Origin: Escherichia coli
GTDB taxonomy: Bacteria > Pseudomonadota > Gammaproteobacteria > Enterobacterales > Enterobacteriaceae
Reading direction: 5' to 3' (one strand)
Length of the DNA: 64,000 bases
NCBI RefSeq assembly: GCF_003334355.1
Contig: NZ_QOWP01000001.1
Positions 35,265 through 63,737 of the stretch are shown one piece after another. The stretch's first letter is position 1. Every line of letters begins with the position of its first letter. The notes under the pieces were generated by a model. It was given only the letters and a program-made list of their open reading frames with translations, did not search any database and was not told the origin of the DNA. The translations under genes and the position numbers were made by a program.

Positions 35265-35292
35265 AAAAAGCCCCGCAACGTGTTGCGGGGCT
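35265..35292 (-). terminator. Intrinsic terminator downstream of rpmA
   Basis: Hairpin agccccgcaac-gt-gttgcggggct followed on minus strand by U-run. Confidence 0.75.
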
Positions 35293-35319
35293 TTCATCCG
35301 TTACCGGGACGCGAAAAAC

Positions 35320-50428: not shown

Positions 50429-50697
50429 CCGTCAAGCAAACTGTTGAAATCACAAACAAGCTGGGCATGCATGCCCGGCCTGCAATGAAGCTGTTTGAAT
50501 TAATGCAGGGTTTTGACGCTGAAGTGCTGTTACGTAATGACGAAGGCACCGAGGCTGAAGCCAACAGCGTTATTGCGCTGCTGATGTTGGATTCTGCCAA
50601 AGGACGGCAGATTGAAGTTGAAGCGACCGGTCCACAAGAAGAGGAAGCACTGGCCGCCGTTATCGCCCTCTTTAACTCTGGTTTTGATGAAGATTAA
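50425..50697 (+). CDS. ptsO: Phosphocarrier protein NPr, 90 aa
   Basis: ORF track 50425..50697; HPr-like fold, ATG overlaps rapZ stop. Confidence 0.95.
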
Positions 50698-50842
50698 TCT
50701 TCATCACTTTGACATTCAAATCCCTTCAAGCTCCCCCGGCAATAAGAAAAGCGCGTACTGAAATCGTTCTCAATCAACGTCATTTGTACATTTTGTGCGC
50801 TTTTCACTTTCAGAAGAACCTTAAGAAAACCTTAAGAAGCAT

Positions 50843-55578: not shown

Positions 55579-56508
55579 CTACTCCGTTGGAGGTAGCCAC
55601 GGACGTCCCAGCGCCGATCCCTGTACGCCATGTTCATTCAGATAGCGATCCAGCTCGACCATTCCCGTCCATCGATTTTCGCACCACAGCGGAGCAAGCA
55701 GCGTCGGGCGACGGGCGCTGGCGGAAATGCGGTGGTAGATCACTTCCGGTGGCGTATGGCGAATCATTTCTCCGGCAGTGAGCGTGTAATCCTCCAGTTC
55801 AATACCGTTCAAACGCCCCGCTTCCCAGGCTTTCGCCATAATGCTGCCTTTCACAATATGCAGCGGATGCAGCTTTATGCCGTCCACGCCGGTTTCAACC
55901 ACTCGCTCCAGCGTTTGCAAACATTCAGCCTGCCCTTCGCCAGGCAGGCCGACAATTAAGTGGGAACACACCTTCAGCCCGCGCTGACGTGCCAGCTGGG
56001 TTGTACGCTGATAACAGGCAAAATCATGGCCGCGGTTGATGCGATGCAGTGTTTTGTCGTGGGCGGTTTGTAGCCCCAGCTCCAGCCACACTTCGTAACC
56101 CTGGTCCTTATATTCGCAAAGCAGATCCAGCACCGCATCCGGCACGCAGTCCGGGCGGGTACCAACACACAAACCGACAATATTGGCCTGGCTCACCGCC
56201 TGCTGATACATAGAACGCAGCACCTGAACTTCCGCAAAGGTGCTGGTATACGCCTGAAAGTAGGCCAGATAGCGTTTAGCACGGTTAACTAAATTCGCCT
56301 GGTGCGCCAGTTGCTCGGCAATGGAACGATGCTGCTGCGCTTCATCGGCAAACGAGGCCACATTACAGAATGTGCAGCCACCACGCCCGATGGTACCGTC
56401 ACGGTTAGGGCAGCTAAAACCGCCGTGCAGCGTCAGCTTATGCACCTTTTGCCCATAACGACGGGTGAGATCACCACCAAACATATTGACTAATTTCTGT
56501 AACTGCAT
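55579..56508 (-). CDS. yhcC: Radical SAM protein YhcC (TIGR01212 family), 309 aa
   Basis: ORF track 55579..56541; trimmed to ATG giving MQLQKLVNMFGGDLTRRYG; cysteine-rich motif CPNRDGTIGRGGCTFC. Confidence 0.9.
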   Translation of the reverse strand: MQLQKLVNMFGGDLTRRYGQKVHKLTLHGGFSCPNRDGTIGRGGCTFCNVASFADEAQQHRSIAEQLAHQANLVNRAKRYLAYFQAYTSTFAEVQVLRSMYQQAVSQANIVGLCVGTRPDCVPDAVLDLLCEYKDQGYEVWLELGLQTAHDKTLHRINRGHDFACYQRTTQLARQRGLKVCSHLIVGLPGEGQAECLQTLERVVETGVDGIKLHPLHIVKGSIMAKAWEAGRLNGIELEDYTLTAGEMIRHTPPEVIYHRISASARRPTLLAPLWCENRWTGMVELDRYLNEHGVQGSALGRPWLPPTE

Positions 56509-56541
56509 AATCTGATAGACCGCGCCTTGAAAAGAGGCCAA

Positions 56542-57182
56542 AGCCTGCCATTTTTAGCTCAATTCGGCGATGACCTGGATCAATCGTCCCGGCCTGCTTT
56601 TATCAACTGCATAATCAATCAAAATTACCGAAATTTCATGCATAATCACATAAATCACTTTTGCTTATCTTGTGTCAGATTTTTTTATCTCCTTATGGAT
56701 TTTAGGCAAAAACAGTAGCATGAAACGTCATTACCAATTAAGGCAGTATAAAATGCTGGTTTTGTCGTCAGTTCAAGGCAGGATAAGGGTTAACACGCCT
56801 TTATGACAGTCAGGAATTGACTGTTTCTCTAACGACTTCCCTTTTAGCCTTAAAGATAAAATCTATTTTAATTTCAGTCAGTTAATAAAGAATTTTGCGC
56901 TAAAGCACATTTCTGTACCAATAAGCTTGCTATTTGACCTGTATCAGCTTTCCCGATAAGTTGGAAATCCGCTGGAAGCTTTCTGGATGAGCAGCCTGCT
57001 CATCATATTTATGCAGTAATTGAGATCCCCTCTTCACCGTATTAACCGATGCGAAAAGGACAACAAGGGGGCGAATGCGAGGCGCGCGTATGACACGCAA
57101 ACCCCGTCGCCACGCTCTTTCTGTGCCCGTGCGCAGCGGTTCGGAAGTGGGGTTCCCGCAGAGCCTGGGGGAGGTTCACGAT
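56542..57182 (+). promoter_or_regulatory. gltBD upstream regulatory region and leader
   Basis: About 640 bp AT-rich non-coding DNA upstream of gltB; established knowledge places the gltB promoter and its regulator-binding sites here (individual sites not mapped); contains palindrome gatgagca-gcc-tgctcatc near 56986-57004. Confidence 0.45.
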
Positions 57183-60100
57183 ATGTTGTACGATAAATCC
57201 CTTGAGAGGGATAACTGTGGTTTCGGCCTGATCGCCCACATAGAAGGCGAACCTAGCCACAAGGTAGTGCGTACTGCAATACACGCACTGGCCCGCATGC
57301 AGCACCGTGGCGCGATTCTCGCCGATGGTAAAACCGGTGACGGTTGCGGCTTGCTGTTACAAAAACCGGATCGCTTTTTTCGCATCGTTGCGCAGGAGCG
57401 CGGCTGGCGTTTAGCGAAAAACTACGCCGTCGGGATGCTATTCCTGAATAAAGATCCTGAACTCGCCGCTGCCGCACGCCGCATCGTTGAAGAAGAGCTG
57501 CAACGCGAAACCTTGTCGATTGTGGGCTGGCGTGATGTCCCCACTAACGAAGGCGTGCTGGGTGAAATCGCCCTCTCCTCTCTGCCACGCATTGAGCAAA
57601 TTTTTGTGAACGCCCCGGCAGGCTGGCGTCCACGCGATATGGAGCGCCGTCTGTTTATCGCCCGCCGCCGCATTGAAAAGCGTCTCGAAGCCGACAAAGA
57701 CTTCTACGTCTGTAGCCTGTCGAATCTGGTGAACATCTATAAAGGTCTGTGTATGCCGGCGGATCTGCCGCGCTTTTATCTGGATCTTGCGGACCTGCGT
57801 CTGGAATCGGCCATTTGCCTGTTCCACCAGCGCTTCTCCACTAACACCGTACCGCGCTGGCCGCTGGCGCAACCGTTCCGCTATCTGGCGCATAACGGTG
57901 AAATCAACACCATCACCGGTAACCGCCAATGGGCGCGTGCGCGTACCTATAAATTCCAGACGCCGCTTATCCCTGATCTGCACGACGCCGCACCGTTCGT
58001 CAACGAAACCGGCTCTGACTCCAGTTCCATGGATAACATGCTGGAACTGCTGCTGGCAGGCGGGATGGATATCATCCGCGCCATGCGTCTATTAGTACCA
58101 CCCGCCTGGCAGAACAACCCGGATATGGACCCGGAACTGCGTGCCTTCTTTGACTTTAACTCCATGCATATGGAGCCGTGGGATGGCCCGGCGGGCATCG
58201 TGATGTCCGACGGTCGTTTTGCCGCCTGTAACCTCGACCGTAACGGTCTGCGTCCGGCGCGCTACGTCATCACCAAAGATAAGCTCATCACCTGCGCCTC
58301 TGAAGTCGGTATCTGGGATTACCAGCCTGACGAAGTGGTCGAAAAAGGCCGCGTCGGGCCAGGCGAACTGATGGTTATCGACACCCGCAGTGGGCGTATT
58401 CTGCACTCGGCAGAAACCGATGACGATCTGAAAAGCCGCCATCCATATAAAGAGTGGATGGAGAAAAACGTCCGCCGACTGGTACCGTTTGAAGATCTGC
58501 CCGATGAAGAAGTGGGTAGCCGCGAACTGGACGACGACACGCTTGCCAGCTACCAGAAACAGTTTAACTACAGCGCGGAAGAGCTGGACTCCGTAATTCG
58601 CGTACTGGGCGAAAACGGTCAGGAAGCGGTCGGTTCGATGGGCGATGATACCCCATTCGCCGTGCTCTCCAGTCAGCCGCGCATTATTTACGACTACTTC
58701 CGCCAGCAGTTTGCCCAGGTGACTAACCCGCCAATCGACCCGCTGCGTGAAGCGCATGTTATGTCGCTCGCCACCAGTATCGGTCGTGAAATGAACGTCT
58801 TTTGCGAAGCAGAGGGCCAGGCGCACCGTTTAAGCTTTAAATCGCCGATTCTGCTCTACTCCGATTTCAAACAGCTCACGACGATGAAAGAGGAGCACTA
58901 CCGCGCAGATACGCTGGATATCACCTTTGACGTCACTAAAACCACGCTCGAAGCGACAGTCAAAGAGCTGTGCGACAAAGCCGAAAAAATGGTACGTAGC
59001 GGCACCGTGCTGCTGGTGCTCTCCGACCGGAATATCGCTAAAGATCGCCTGCCGGTTCCAGCCCCGATGGCGGTTGGCGCGATCCAGACCCGTCTGGTCG
59101 ATCAAAGCCTGCGTTGCGATGCCAACATCATCGTCGAAACCGCCAGCGCCCGCGATCCGCACCACTTCGCCGTGTTGCTGGGCTTCGGCGCGACGGCTAT
59201 TTATCCATACCTTGCCTATGAAACGCTGGGCCGCCTGGTAGACACCCATGCGATTGCCAAAGATTATCGTACCGTGATGCTCAACTACCGTAACGGCATC
59301 AACAAAGGCTTGTACAAAATCATGTCCAAAATGGGCATCTCCACCATCGCCTCTTACCGCTGCTCGAAACTGTTTGAAGCGGTCGGTCTACACGATGATG
59401 TAGTGGGCCTGTGCTTCCAGGGGGCGGTCAGCCGCATTGGTGGGGCAAGCTTTGAAGACTTCCAGCAGGATCTGCTGAATCTGTCGAAACGTGCCTGGCT
59501 GGCGCGTAAGCCCATCAGCCAGGGCGGCCTGCTGAAATACGTCCACGGCGGCGAATACCACGCCTACAACCCGGACGTGGTGCGCACGCTGCAACAAGCG
59601 GTACAAAGCGGCGAGTACAGCGACTATCAGGAATACGCGAAGCTGGTTAATGAGCGTCCGGCAACCACGCTGCGCGATCTGCTGGCAATTACGCCGGGTG
59701 AAAACGCGGTCAACATTGCTGATGTTGAACCGGCAAGCGAACTGTTTAAACGCTTTGATACCGCCGCGATGTCTATCGGCGCGTTAAGCCCGGAAGCCCA
59801 CGAGGCGCTGGCGGAAGCGATGAACAGCATCGGCGGTAATTCGAACTCCGGTGAAGGCGGCGAAGACCCGGCGCGCTACGGCACCAACAAAGTGTCGCGC
59901 ATCAAGCAGGTGGCTTCCGGTCGCTTTGGGGTTACTCCGGCGTATCTGGTCAATGCCGACGTCATTCAGATTAAAGTCGCCCAGGGCGCGAAGCCAGGCG
60001 AAGGCGGTCAGTTGCCGGGTGATAAAGTCACGCCTTACATCGCCAAACTGCGCTATTCGGTGCCCGGAGTGACGCTGATCTCCCCGCCGCCGCACCACGA

Positions 60101-63257: not shown

Positions 63258-63737
63258 ATGGAATCGCTCTCAGAGAGAACCTCAACAGGCTACCAGCAAA
63301 TCCATGACGGTATTATTCACCTGGTCGATAGCGCCCGGACGGAAACGGTACGTAGCGTTAACGCGCTGATGACCGCGACATACTGGGAAATTGGCCGACG
63401 AATTGTCGAATTTGAACAAGGTGGCGAGGCCAGGGCTGCGTATGGTGCGCAGCTAATCAAGCGACAATCAAAGGATTTAAGTCTAAGGTATAAGCGTGGG
63501 TTCTCTGCAAAAAACTTACGCCAAATGAGGCTTTTTTACCTCTTTTTTCAACATGTTGAAATTCGCCAGACAGTGTCTGGCGAATTAACACCATTGGGAA
63601 TTCCGCAGACACCATCTGCAGAATTCCCATCGGCAAAGATTTGGCAGACGCTGTCTGCCAAATTGAGAGGCTGTTTGATATTTCCACAGCTTTTGTATTG
63701 CATCTCCTATTTTCGGTTTGTATATTCATGCAAATAA
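63258..63737 (+). pseudogene. Truncated DUF1016/YhcG-family gene (N-terminal domain only; PD-(D/E)XK nuclease domain absent)
   Basis: ORF track 63258..63737 (159 aa); residues ~30-100 (LMTATYWEIGRRIVEFEQGG...GFSAKNLRQMRLFY) resemble the DUF1016 N-terminal domain; recognisable similarity stops at the triple repeat near 63560-63670, then an unrelated tail and stop. Confidence 0.5.
63561..63669. repeat. Three tandem degenerate ~38-bp units each with a palindromic core GCAGAC-N(1-5)-GTCTGC followed by AATT
   Basis: Units: ttcGCCAGACAGTGTCTGGCGAATTaacaccattgggaa / ttcCGCAGACACCATCTGCAGAATTcccatcggcaaaga / tttGGCAGACGCTGTCTGCCAAATTgagaggctgtttga. Confidence 0.7.

Follow-up and report, generated by a model that had tools for sequence, protein, structure and literature searches.

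The leader of rpoS mRNA is a hub for the Hfq-dependent small RNAs (sRNAs) DsrA, RprA, ArcZ and OxyS, where sRNAs open an inhibitory stem that holds the ribosome-binding site, and it is also subject to Rho-dependent attenuation. The 5′ UTR of sodB, the gene of an iron-containing enzyme, is a target of both RyhB and FnrS, with a hairpin adjoining an AU-rich accessible stretch and pairing that takes place over the start codon. For the iron-sulfur enzyme glutamate synthase (GOGAT), lowering by an iron-starvation sRNA is known from other bacteria, i.e., FsrA acting on gltAB in B. subtilis, IsrR on gltB2 in S. aureus, and RyhB on gltB1 in V. cholerae. The gltBDF genes of E. coli, one arm of the main ammonia-assimilation route, have been studied almost wholly at the level of transcription initiation (Lrp, IHF, CRP, ArgR), with no attention paid to their 217-nt leader. 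FNR has been reported to affect gltBDF, with no FNR site confirmed, and the indirect effects of Fnr, Nac, and GadE likewise have no mapped sites.

The DNA analyzed here is a 64-kb stretch (the window) that carries the arcB-yhcC-gltB gene order of E. coli. The locus was identified with the 901 bp around a palindrome upstream of gltB, which matched 5417 out of 5426 complete E. coli genomes (≥ 95% identity), their annotation placing yhcC on the minus and gltB on the plus strand; MG1655 coordinates are obtained by adding 3297542 to the window coordinates. A sequence-only reading of this region had described about 640 bp of AT-rich DNA between the two genes, with a palindrome roughly 180 bp before the gltB ATG that could serve as a protein-binding operator or as an RNA hairpin in the leader. 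According to RefSeq, yhcC starts at 56508, instead of the 56541 taken before, and the gltB ATG lies at 57183, which widens the spacer to 674 bp (56509–57182). The AT-richness applies to the part upstream of the transcription start (37% GC) and not to the transcribed leader (57% GC, with 52% in the window as a whole). The palindrome itself is found where it had been placed, at 56986–57004, with its center 188 bp upstream of 57183. Its proposed layout of 8-bp arms around a 3-nt spacer is right for the RNA fold, while at the DNA level it is better described as a perfect 19-bp inverted repeat, GATGAGCAG-C-CTGCTCATC, with 9-nt arms around one central base.

The RNA form of the palindrome is a hairpin of eight base pairs closed by a 3-nt loop (− 11.1 kcal/mol; z = − 3.0 relative to shuffled sequences), and four of the eight pairs are G-C, making it a G+C-rich stem-loop of the kind found in intrinsic terminators. 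Counting only perfect inverted repeats with arms ≥ 9 and loops ≤ 5, the window holds 8 of them vs. 1.07 ± 1.0 in dinucleotide shuffles; most of the other seven look terminator-like, judging from their A-run/T-run flanks. Shuffled versions of the 674-bp spacer contained such a repeat in 1.8% (arms ≥ 9) or 6.8% (arms ≥ 8) of the cases and, because of these chance rates, the palindrome taken alone is mildly unusual, which is suggestive but not decisive, so that its conservation has to carry the case. Within the species, the 901-bp region falls below 99% identity in 2127 genomes, whereas 5376 of the 5417 carry one and the same 86-nt sequence from − 6 to + 80, with the hairpin in it. A dispersed repeat of the REP/BIME type was ruled out, as the element occupies one place per genome in the 5417 E. 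coli genomes and gives a single match in the 64-kb window.

The start of transcription was located through the product of primers gltP1 and gltP2, named the “− 325 to + 8” fragment by Paul et al. (2007, PMC1784095). The genome-matching part of gltP1 starts at 56641 and that of gltP2 ends at 56973, which sets the gltB + 1 at 56966 and therefore the palindrome at + 21 to + 39 of the 217-nt leader. This numbering reproduces the CRP site of Paul et al. (2007), at − 76 to − 55, together with the 21-bp gap to the − 35 hexamer and, independently of the primers, the earliest RIL-seq read start in gltB lies at MG1655 3354512 (window 56970, + 5), while no gltB entry was found in the start-site tables of Kim 2012. 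The promoter-proximal features are the following:

56934–56939, plus strand: − 35 hexamer TTGACC of the gltB promoter, 21 bp from the edge of the CRP site (Paul et al. 2007) and conserved
56955–56961, plus strand: − 10 region GATAAGT, at a position consistent with a start at 56966
56966 (± 1 nt), plus strand: transcription start of gltBDF, from the primer and fragment coordinates of Paul et al. (2007)
56986–57004, plus strand: palindrome and RNA stem-loop, hereafter P1 (+ 21 to + 39), based on fold, covariation, and ensemble

A scan for the sigma-70 consensus gave no match in the spacer because the real gltB promoter is too weak for a consensus rule. The − 35 region (ATTTGAC) is nevertheless invariant in nearly all orthologues, at a fixed spacing to the leader motifs, and the − 10 region is conserved across Enterobacterales as CCCGATAAGTTGG. 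The mapped gltBDF sites for CRP (− 72 to − 52), IHF (− 113 to − 75), Lrp (− 152, − 215, and − 246), and ArgR (− 361 to − 318) are all upstream of the start and none coincides with the palindrome. Coincidence with an already mapped site or a lack of conservation, which the sequence-only reading had named as the outcomes that would speak against it, was thus not what we found. A literal search of the papers covered did not find the palindrome or its flanking sequences in print.

A single scan with GltB residues 1–200 against genomes representing individual species supplied the orthologous loci, 80 in all, which extend from Enterobacteriaceae as far as Vibrionaceae, Aeromonas, and Pseudoalteromonas; covariation was assessed in the 46 leaders (Enterobacterales and two Photobacterium) that form a gap-free alignment. 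A hairpin is present at the position of P1 in these 46 leaders, embedded in a module, ATTTGAC-N33-CTGGAAGC-N29-TTATGCAG, whose spacing is identical from Escherichia to Photobacterium, i.e., in all Enterobacterales with a recognizable leader and in the two Photobacterium. The cells of the P1 stem pair in 84.3% of the cases, vs. 24–55% when the 3′ partner is slid by 1–3 columns (91% of cells pair in the 40-sequence Enterobacterales alignment). Changes on both sides of a pair were counted in 59 cells, vs. 21.5 ± 6.3 in shuffles, and the covariation score was 0.457 vs. 0.259, neither value being reached in any of 500 shuffles. Six of the eight stem positions change on both sides and remain complementary, giving stems such as GAUGGGC/GCCCAUC in Enterobacter, GGUGAGCAG/CUGCUCACC in Pseudescherichia, GACGGGU/ACCCGUC in Erwinia, GACGAGU/ACUCGUC in Rahnella, GCGGA/UCCGC in Tatumella, and GGCGAUC/GAUUGCC in Photobacterium, a further compensated variant being GAUGAACA/UGUUCAUC (other arms seen across genera are GAUGAGC and UCAGAU). 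In Yersinia and Photorhabdus, the hairpin is kept in a shifted register. The loop of P1 varies freely.

The strand on which this structure is selected can be told from the wobble pairs. Among the seven outer P1 pairs, 21 cells are G·U and none is A·C on the sense strand; since a sense A·C would be an antisense G·U, the selected structure is that of the sense-strand RNA. The local hairpin folds in all 43 distinct orthologue sequences (− 4.9 to − 13.1 kcal/mol), and in the ensemble of the E. coli leader its predicted pairing probability is ~ 1.0. When searched with a covariance model of the module, the 64-kb window contains one match; the model also detects Hafnia and, weakly, Edwardsiella, with no match in Budvicia, Morganella, Orbaceae, Vibrio, Aeromonas, or Pseudoalteromonas. 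We therefore regard the palindrome as very probably a sense-strand RNA hairpin of the gltB leader and not an operator.

The remainder of the leader was examined in the same alignments and contains the following features:

56966–56985, plus strand: near-invariant single-stranded 5′ flank of P1, (A)AUCCGCUGGAAGCUUUCUG, from the alignments
57005–57032, plus strand: near-invariant 3′ flank of P1, AUAUUUAUGCAGUAAUUGAGAUCCCCUC, from the alignments
57011–57019, plus strand: mini-ORF AUG CAG UAA (Met-Gln-stop) within the 3′ flank, read from the sequence
57048–57077, plus strand: segment of the GcvB Hfq-CLASH hybrid, CA-rich ACAACAA (Iosub 2020)
57065–57119, plus strand: stem P3, AAGGGGGCGA...GUCGCC-ACG-CUCUU in E. 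coli, from pair counts and a Term-seq end
57167–57185, plus strand: Shine-Dalgarno sequence GGGGGAGG and gltB start codon, in an invariant 28-nt block

Both flanks of P1 are predicted to be accessible, the 5′ one mostly unpaired (opening energy 2.8 kcal/mol) and the 3′ one largely so (1.8 kcal/mol), and the predicted accessibility changes only slightly when P1 is disrupted in silico. In the leader alignment, P1 is followed by the nearly invariant stretch CAUAUUUAUGCAGUAAUUGAGAUUCCCUC, and variant leader stretches are found in Photorhabdus (UAUGCAGUGAC), Tatumella (UAUGCAGUAGC), Erwinia (UAUGCAGUUAU), and Rahnella (CUGGAAGCAAU). The Met-Gln mini-ORF occurs in 34 of the 40 Enterobacterales, never exceeds 8 codons and has no Shine-Dalgarno sequence. 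Further downstream, an invariant hairpin P2 (ACAAGU-loop-ACUUGU) is present in every other genus and deleted in E. coli, and a CA-rich stretch lies between the P2 position and P3. The latter has the form AAGAGGGCGA...GUCGCC-AUG-CUCUU with a variable apex across orthologues, its cells being paired in 76–86% of the cases with weak covariation, and a Term-seq RNA 3′ end was mapped within it at MG1655 3354657 (57115, + 150; Adams 2021). Downstream of P3, a small hairpin P4 is weakly supported. A long-range helix CCCUCU:AGAGGG, which overlaps the 5′ arm of P3, could form in 90% of cells, with covariation that is not above shuffles; the ribosome-binding site of E. coli gltB is predicted to be strongly sequestered (opening energy 8.4 kcal/mol). 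The whole leader folds no better than its shuffles (z = 0.09), and among P1–P4 and CCCUCU:AGAGGG strong covariation is found in P1 only. RNAalifold additionally proposes a helix GCUG/CAGU enclosing P1, both strands of which are invariant, so that no covariation signal is possible. Searches of Rfam 15 returned no credible family match in the E. coli leader (E ≤ 10), and in nine other genera nothing at gltB attained the gathering score. As judged from these alignments, the comparison shows a deeply conserved RNA module at the beginning of the 217-nt gltB leader.

The leader was then compared with six E. coli sRNAs (the ArcZ sequence was taken from the window), using the lengths of perfect runs relative to shuffles as well as co-folding, given that RNAduplex with full-length sRNAs produced meaningless giant-loop duplexes. 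In the 3′ flank, UAUGCAGUAAUU (57010–57021, + 45 to + 56) complements FnrS nt 63–74 perfectly over 12 nt, a run that was reached in none of 1000 dinucleotide shuffles of the leader. At least 8 nt of this complement are kept in register in 45 of the 46 orthologues and all 12 nt in 27, and FnrS, including the pairing stretch, is invariant in seven genera of Enterobacteriaceae (Escherichia, Salmonella, Raoultella, Phytobacter, Pseudocitrobacter, Enterobacter sp. R1, and Siccibacter). Several observations temper this match. It lies partly within a predicted hairpin of FnrS, which counts against docking, and the leaders of Phytobacter and Siccibacter shorten it to 8 nt with FnrS unchanged, so that there is no covariation between FnrS and its candidate target. 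Some environmental FnrS variants carry an A or U opposite an invariant leader G; these metagenomic variants could not be matched with gltB leaders from the genomes they came from. Photobacterium, a genus outside the seven in which FnrS was compared, retains UAUGCAGU as well, and something besides FnrS must constrain this motif.

In the 5′ flank, GCUGGAAGC (56971–56979, + 6 to + 14) complements GCUUCCAGU, the invariant core of RyhB, through eight Watson-Crick pairs and one G·U, an 8-nt match of a length that chance alone can account for with one sRNA (P = 0.22); the complement extends to 11 nt in Rahnella and to 9 nt in one Photobacterium. Co-folding left P1 intact, with FnrS on the 3′ flank (ddG − 13.4 kcal/mol) and RyhB on the 5′ flank (ddG − 12.4 kcal/mol), and placed RprA nt 60–71 on the FnrS stretch of the 3′ flank with 12 pairs, four of them G·U. 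Two properties expected of sRNA targets are thus found here, namely accessibility in silico and a conserved part of the sRNA that the leader complements over 7 nt or more.

Published data also connect this leader with sRNAs. RIL-seq of nitrogen-starved E. coli recovered 42 gltB:::rprA chimeras (p = 7e−32), and gltB.5UTR:::oxyS chimeras were obtained in two conditions, with gltB coordinates that are broad (+ 5 to + 336) and do not place the contacts at the flanks of P1. Hfq-CLASH detected gcvB-gltB hybrids (Iosub 2020, supplementary file 8). In ribosome profiling, gltB had a log2 value of 1.06 in RyhB-minus vs. RyhB-plus cells (p = 0.014) with unchanged mRNA and was listed as a novel, unverified gene under RyhB repression, and overproduction of OmrA/B lowered GltB and GltD. 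No chimeras of FnrS or RyhB with the gltB leader were retrieved from the interactome data covered here, and no FnrS-gltB report was found in the literature searched.

The explanation that we favor, tentatively and as a possibility somewhat short of an even chance, is that P1 is the structural anchor of a 5′-proximal docking region for Hfq and sRNAs. P1 would be a stable local hairpin that holds apart two invariant unpaired segments at the 5′ end and keeps both exposed as landing sites for Hfq-dependent sRNAs. RyhB, the iron-starvation sRNA, would pair with the 5′ side (+ 6 to + 14), and FnrS, the anaerobic sRNA, with the 3′ side (+ 45 to + 56), where RprA and OxyS might bind as well, and such pairing would lower the synthesis of glutamate synthase. 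As the candidate sites are situated 130–170 nt upstream of the ribosome-binding site, the route would have to lead through refolding of the leader, premature termination by Rho, or RNase E, and not through direct occlusion. The binding of FnrS and RyhB at the flanks, the need for the hairpin, and the downstream mechanism are what we infer here. Given that glutamate synthase is an iron-sulfur protein, docking makes physiological sense, and it also agrees with precedents in other bacteria.

Other readings of P1 were weighed against the same evidence. The hairpin could be one helix of a larger cis-acting riboregulator that senses a protein or metabolite or switches folds without sRNAs, for instance by CCCUCU either pairing with AGAGGG or leaving P3 free, which would result in premature termination or translational control. 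The unusual conservation of the entire 217-nt leader with its candidate helices P2, P3, and P4 is in line with this, as are the 90% pairability of CCCUCU:AGAGGG over the 5′ arm of P3, invariant flanks that reach as far as Photobacterium, the predicted sequestration of the E. coli ribosome-binding site (8.4 kcal/mol), and the RNA 3′ end at + 150, which on this reading lies just past P3. We nonetheless consider it unlikely, given that clear covariation is confined to P1, CCCUCU:AGAGGG does not exceed shuffles, the whole-leader fold is indistinguishable from them, P2 has been lost altogether in E. coli, and no Rfam family was matched in ten genera. In a narrower version, to which we give only a slim chance, the first ~ 70 nt (the invariant tail, P1, and the CAUAnnUAUGCAGU... 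stretch) may constitute an ancient, self-contained riboregulatory module common to Enterobacterales and some Vibrionaceae that controls the expression of glutamate synthase. Its signal may be a metabolite reporting nitrogen/carbon status, a dedicated RNA-binding protein, or the ribosome acting through the Met-Gln ORF, and the sRNA complementarities would then be a secondary exploitation of an exposed site. Equally far down the scale as a determinant of mRNA stability or processing, and improbable in our view, is a promoter-proximal pause or weak intrinsic attenuator, with the polymerase pausing or terminating a few nucleotides past the stem, in AUAUUUAU. A consensus scan does pick out P1 as resembling a terminator (an 8-pair stem with four G-C pairs, tail ATATTTATGC) and its distance to the promoter is fixed in all orthologues, but the nearest plus-strand Term-seq ends are at 56599 and 57115 (MG1655 3354141 and 3354657), with none near 3354550 in the one data set of the Adams 2021 tables. 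Moreover, the tail is kept as a specific CAUAnnUAUGCAGU and not as a U-run, E. coli AUAUUUAU having five U in eight positions, and it reads AUAAAUAU or AUACUUAU in Photobacterium and AUUCUUAU in Erwinia psidii, and direct reading of the sequence revealed no G(− 10)/Y(− 1)/G(+ 1) elemental pause consensus 10–12 nt past the stem. An intrinsic terminator in the strict sense was rejected as probably not present, on the grounds of the Term-seq ends and the unconserved U-tract.

A stable hairpin followed by an AU-rich single strand is the usual context of RNase E, and 5′ stem-loops such as that of ompA stabilize mRNAs. P1 shows this arrangement and might block RNase E or RNase III, be recognized by one of them, or protect the mRNA as a stem. 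Protective stems, however, sit at the extreme 5′ end, whereas P1 begins 20 nt from it and leaves a free tail; stability alone would not demand invariant flanks, and no mapped processing site was found at P1, all of which makes this role doubtful. A DNA operator for a dimeric transcription factor, acting downstream of the start as a roadblock or repressor, was the other half of the original proposal. A perfect 19-bp dyad immediately downstream of a promoter, together with the indirect effects of Fnr, Nac, and GadE without mapped sites, would be compatible with it, but the half-sites are not conserved in sequence (both partners have changed at six of the eight stem positions), G·T cells are confined to one strand (21 vs. 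0 on the other), the register shifts in Yersinia and Photorhabdus, and no CRP, IHF, Lrp, or ArgR footprint has been mapped at + 21 to + 39. The palindrome also fits no known FNR, CRP, ArgR, Lrp, or NtrC consensus, which further counts against an operator, and the FNR-like TTGAC-N4-ATCAG sits over the − 35 region instead. The leader-hairpin half of that proposal therefore stands, at + 21 to + 39 and with compensatory and G·U changes in 46 orthologues, and the operator half is highly improbable.

Returning to the sRNA docking region, its candidate sites in the leader are concrete and can be mutated. They could explain the unmapped FNR effect on gltBDF through FnrS, the unverified RyhB effect in ribosome profiling, and the chimeras of RprA, OxyS, and GcvB with the gltB leader. 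If true, iron, oxygen, and envelope/oxidative-stress signals would be integrated post-transcriptionally on glutamate synthase.

Among the known systems, intrinsic terminators and attenuators resemble P1 in having a stem-loop followed by a U/A-rich stretch early in the leader of a biosynthetic operon, but differ in that the gltB leader has no mapped 3′ end at this place, no conserved U-tract, and no alternative antiterminator, and contains just a 2-codon ORF instead of a peptide rich in regulatory codons. The likeness to the rpoS leader lies in a long structured leader on which several sRNAs may converge with contacts far upstream of the ribosome-binding site, in the chimeras that RprA and OxyS form with both leaders in vivo, and in a premature 3′ end within the gltB leader. 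In contrast to rpoS, no long-range stem involving the P1 region is supported in gltB, and the predicted effect is repression. With the sodB 5′ UTR, gltB would share the iron-containing enzyme, RyhB and FnrS as sRNAs, and the hairpin next to an accessible AU-rich stretch, although the predicted gltB pairings lie 130–170 nt upstream of the ribosome-binding site and not over the start codon. The iron-sparing systems of B. subtilis, S. aureus, and V. cholerae have in common with the candidate E. coli regulation that an Fe-S GOGAT is lowered under iron starvation, and differ in the sRNAs and sites employed; Vibrio-type leaders, for example, carry a RyhB-complementary GCAAUG at the start codon and not at the 5′ end, as read from their sequences. 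Seen next to these systems, P1 has not been described before but is of a conventional kind, a stem-loop conserved in the 5′ UTR of an mRNA whose leader sRNAs target, and what sets it apart is the depth of its conservation and the specific candidate sites for FnrS and RyhB that adjoin it.

Hairpin P2, the second hairpin of the gltB leader (A/GCAAGU-loop-ACUUGU), is absent from the E. coli leader, as seen when positions ~57036-57046 were compared with loci L002-L054 (~locus 1340-1365), whereas it is present between CCCUCU and ACCGAUGCG in every other Enterobacterales leader. Its absence is a lineage-specific deletion in a leader that is otherwise highly conserved. The invariant stretch 3' of hairpin P1, the promoter-proximal palindrome at 56986-57004, holds a two-codon ORF, AUG CAG UAA (Met-Gln-stop, 57011-57019), which is found in 34 of 40 aligned Enterobacterales with TAA or TAG as stop codon. 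Photorhabdus, outside this 40-sequence alignment, has TGA as the stop, and the ORF did not exceed 8 codons in any case; it lacks a Shine-Dalgarno sequence. Its second codon specifies Gln, the substrate of the enzyme encoded downstream.

At the gltB promoter, TTGACctgtATCAG (56934-56947) overlaps the -35 hexamer and resembles the FNR consensus TTGAT-N4-ATCAA, matching it at 8 of 10 positions. TTGACctgtATCAG is probably the putative FNR site that was drawn, unconfirmed, as a 'dashed box' in the study of this promoter by Paul 2007. An inverted repeat also flanks the -10 element on both sides (56948-56967 in E. coli, ~locus 1262-1290 in L003, L008 and L014); it reads GGATTCCC-GATAAGTT-GGGAATCC with arms of 8-9 bp in Phytobacter and its relatives, is weaker in E. 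coli (TTTCC ... GGAAA), and may mark a site on the DNA that spans the -10 or may have arisen by chance. The context of the -10 element recurs in the 5' arm of P1 as a direct repeat with 80% identity (AGCTTTCCCGATAAG at 56946-56960 and AGCTTTCTGGATGAG at 56977-56991), which appears to be limited to E. coli.

The leader alignment also bears on the gltB start codon. The segment 57090-57182, the N-terminal GltB extension of a former annotation that placed the ATG at 57090, is indel-rich and poorly conserved, and this pattern supports the current start at 57183. Owing to the old ATG, the RNA 3' end at 57115 was labelled 'ORF-internal' in Adams 2021, while its actual position is in the 5' UTR. Published Term-seq data place another 3' end at 56599 (+ strand; MG1655 3354141), within the unnamed EcoCyc object G0-10702, some 370 bp 5' of the gltB transcription start and adjoining the ArgR boxes, which implies a plus-strand transcript ending there in the yhcC-gltB spacer; RefSeq annotates no feature at this position.

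Other long perfect inverted repeats lie in the window, the first of those listed being the most notable:

Long perfect inverted repeats elsewhere in the window
50685-50706, TGATGAAGATTAATCTTCATCA, 11+11 nt without a loop
37150-37174, long perfect inverted repeat
35267-35294, long perfect inverted repeat
63560-63586, long perfect inverted repeat
63639-63663, long perfect inverted repeat

Among the metagenomic loci of FnrS (L095-L174), the sRNA with complementarity to the 3' flank of P1, variation falls mostly in the terminator; UGCAUAGCAC is nearly invariant, and the second hairpin of FnrS has one variable position, AAUUA[C/A/U]UGCAUA. By eye, the Vibrio leaders (L071, L077, L080) do not contain the enterobacterial leader module; close to their promoter, downstream of a CTTGACC/-10 pair and about 190 nt 5' of gltB, they nonetheless have a hairpin, GAUGAA-aaugaa-UUCGUC. 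Inspected likewise, CAUUGC of the sRNA RyhB is complementary to GCAAUG of the Vibrio gltB start-codon region, and the Aeromonas leaders (L066, L069) contain UUUAUGCAG/A within a different fold.
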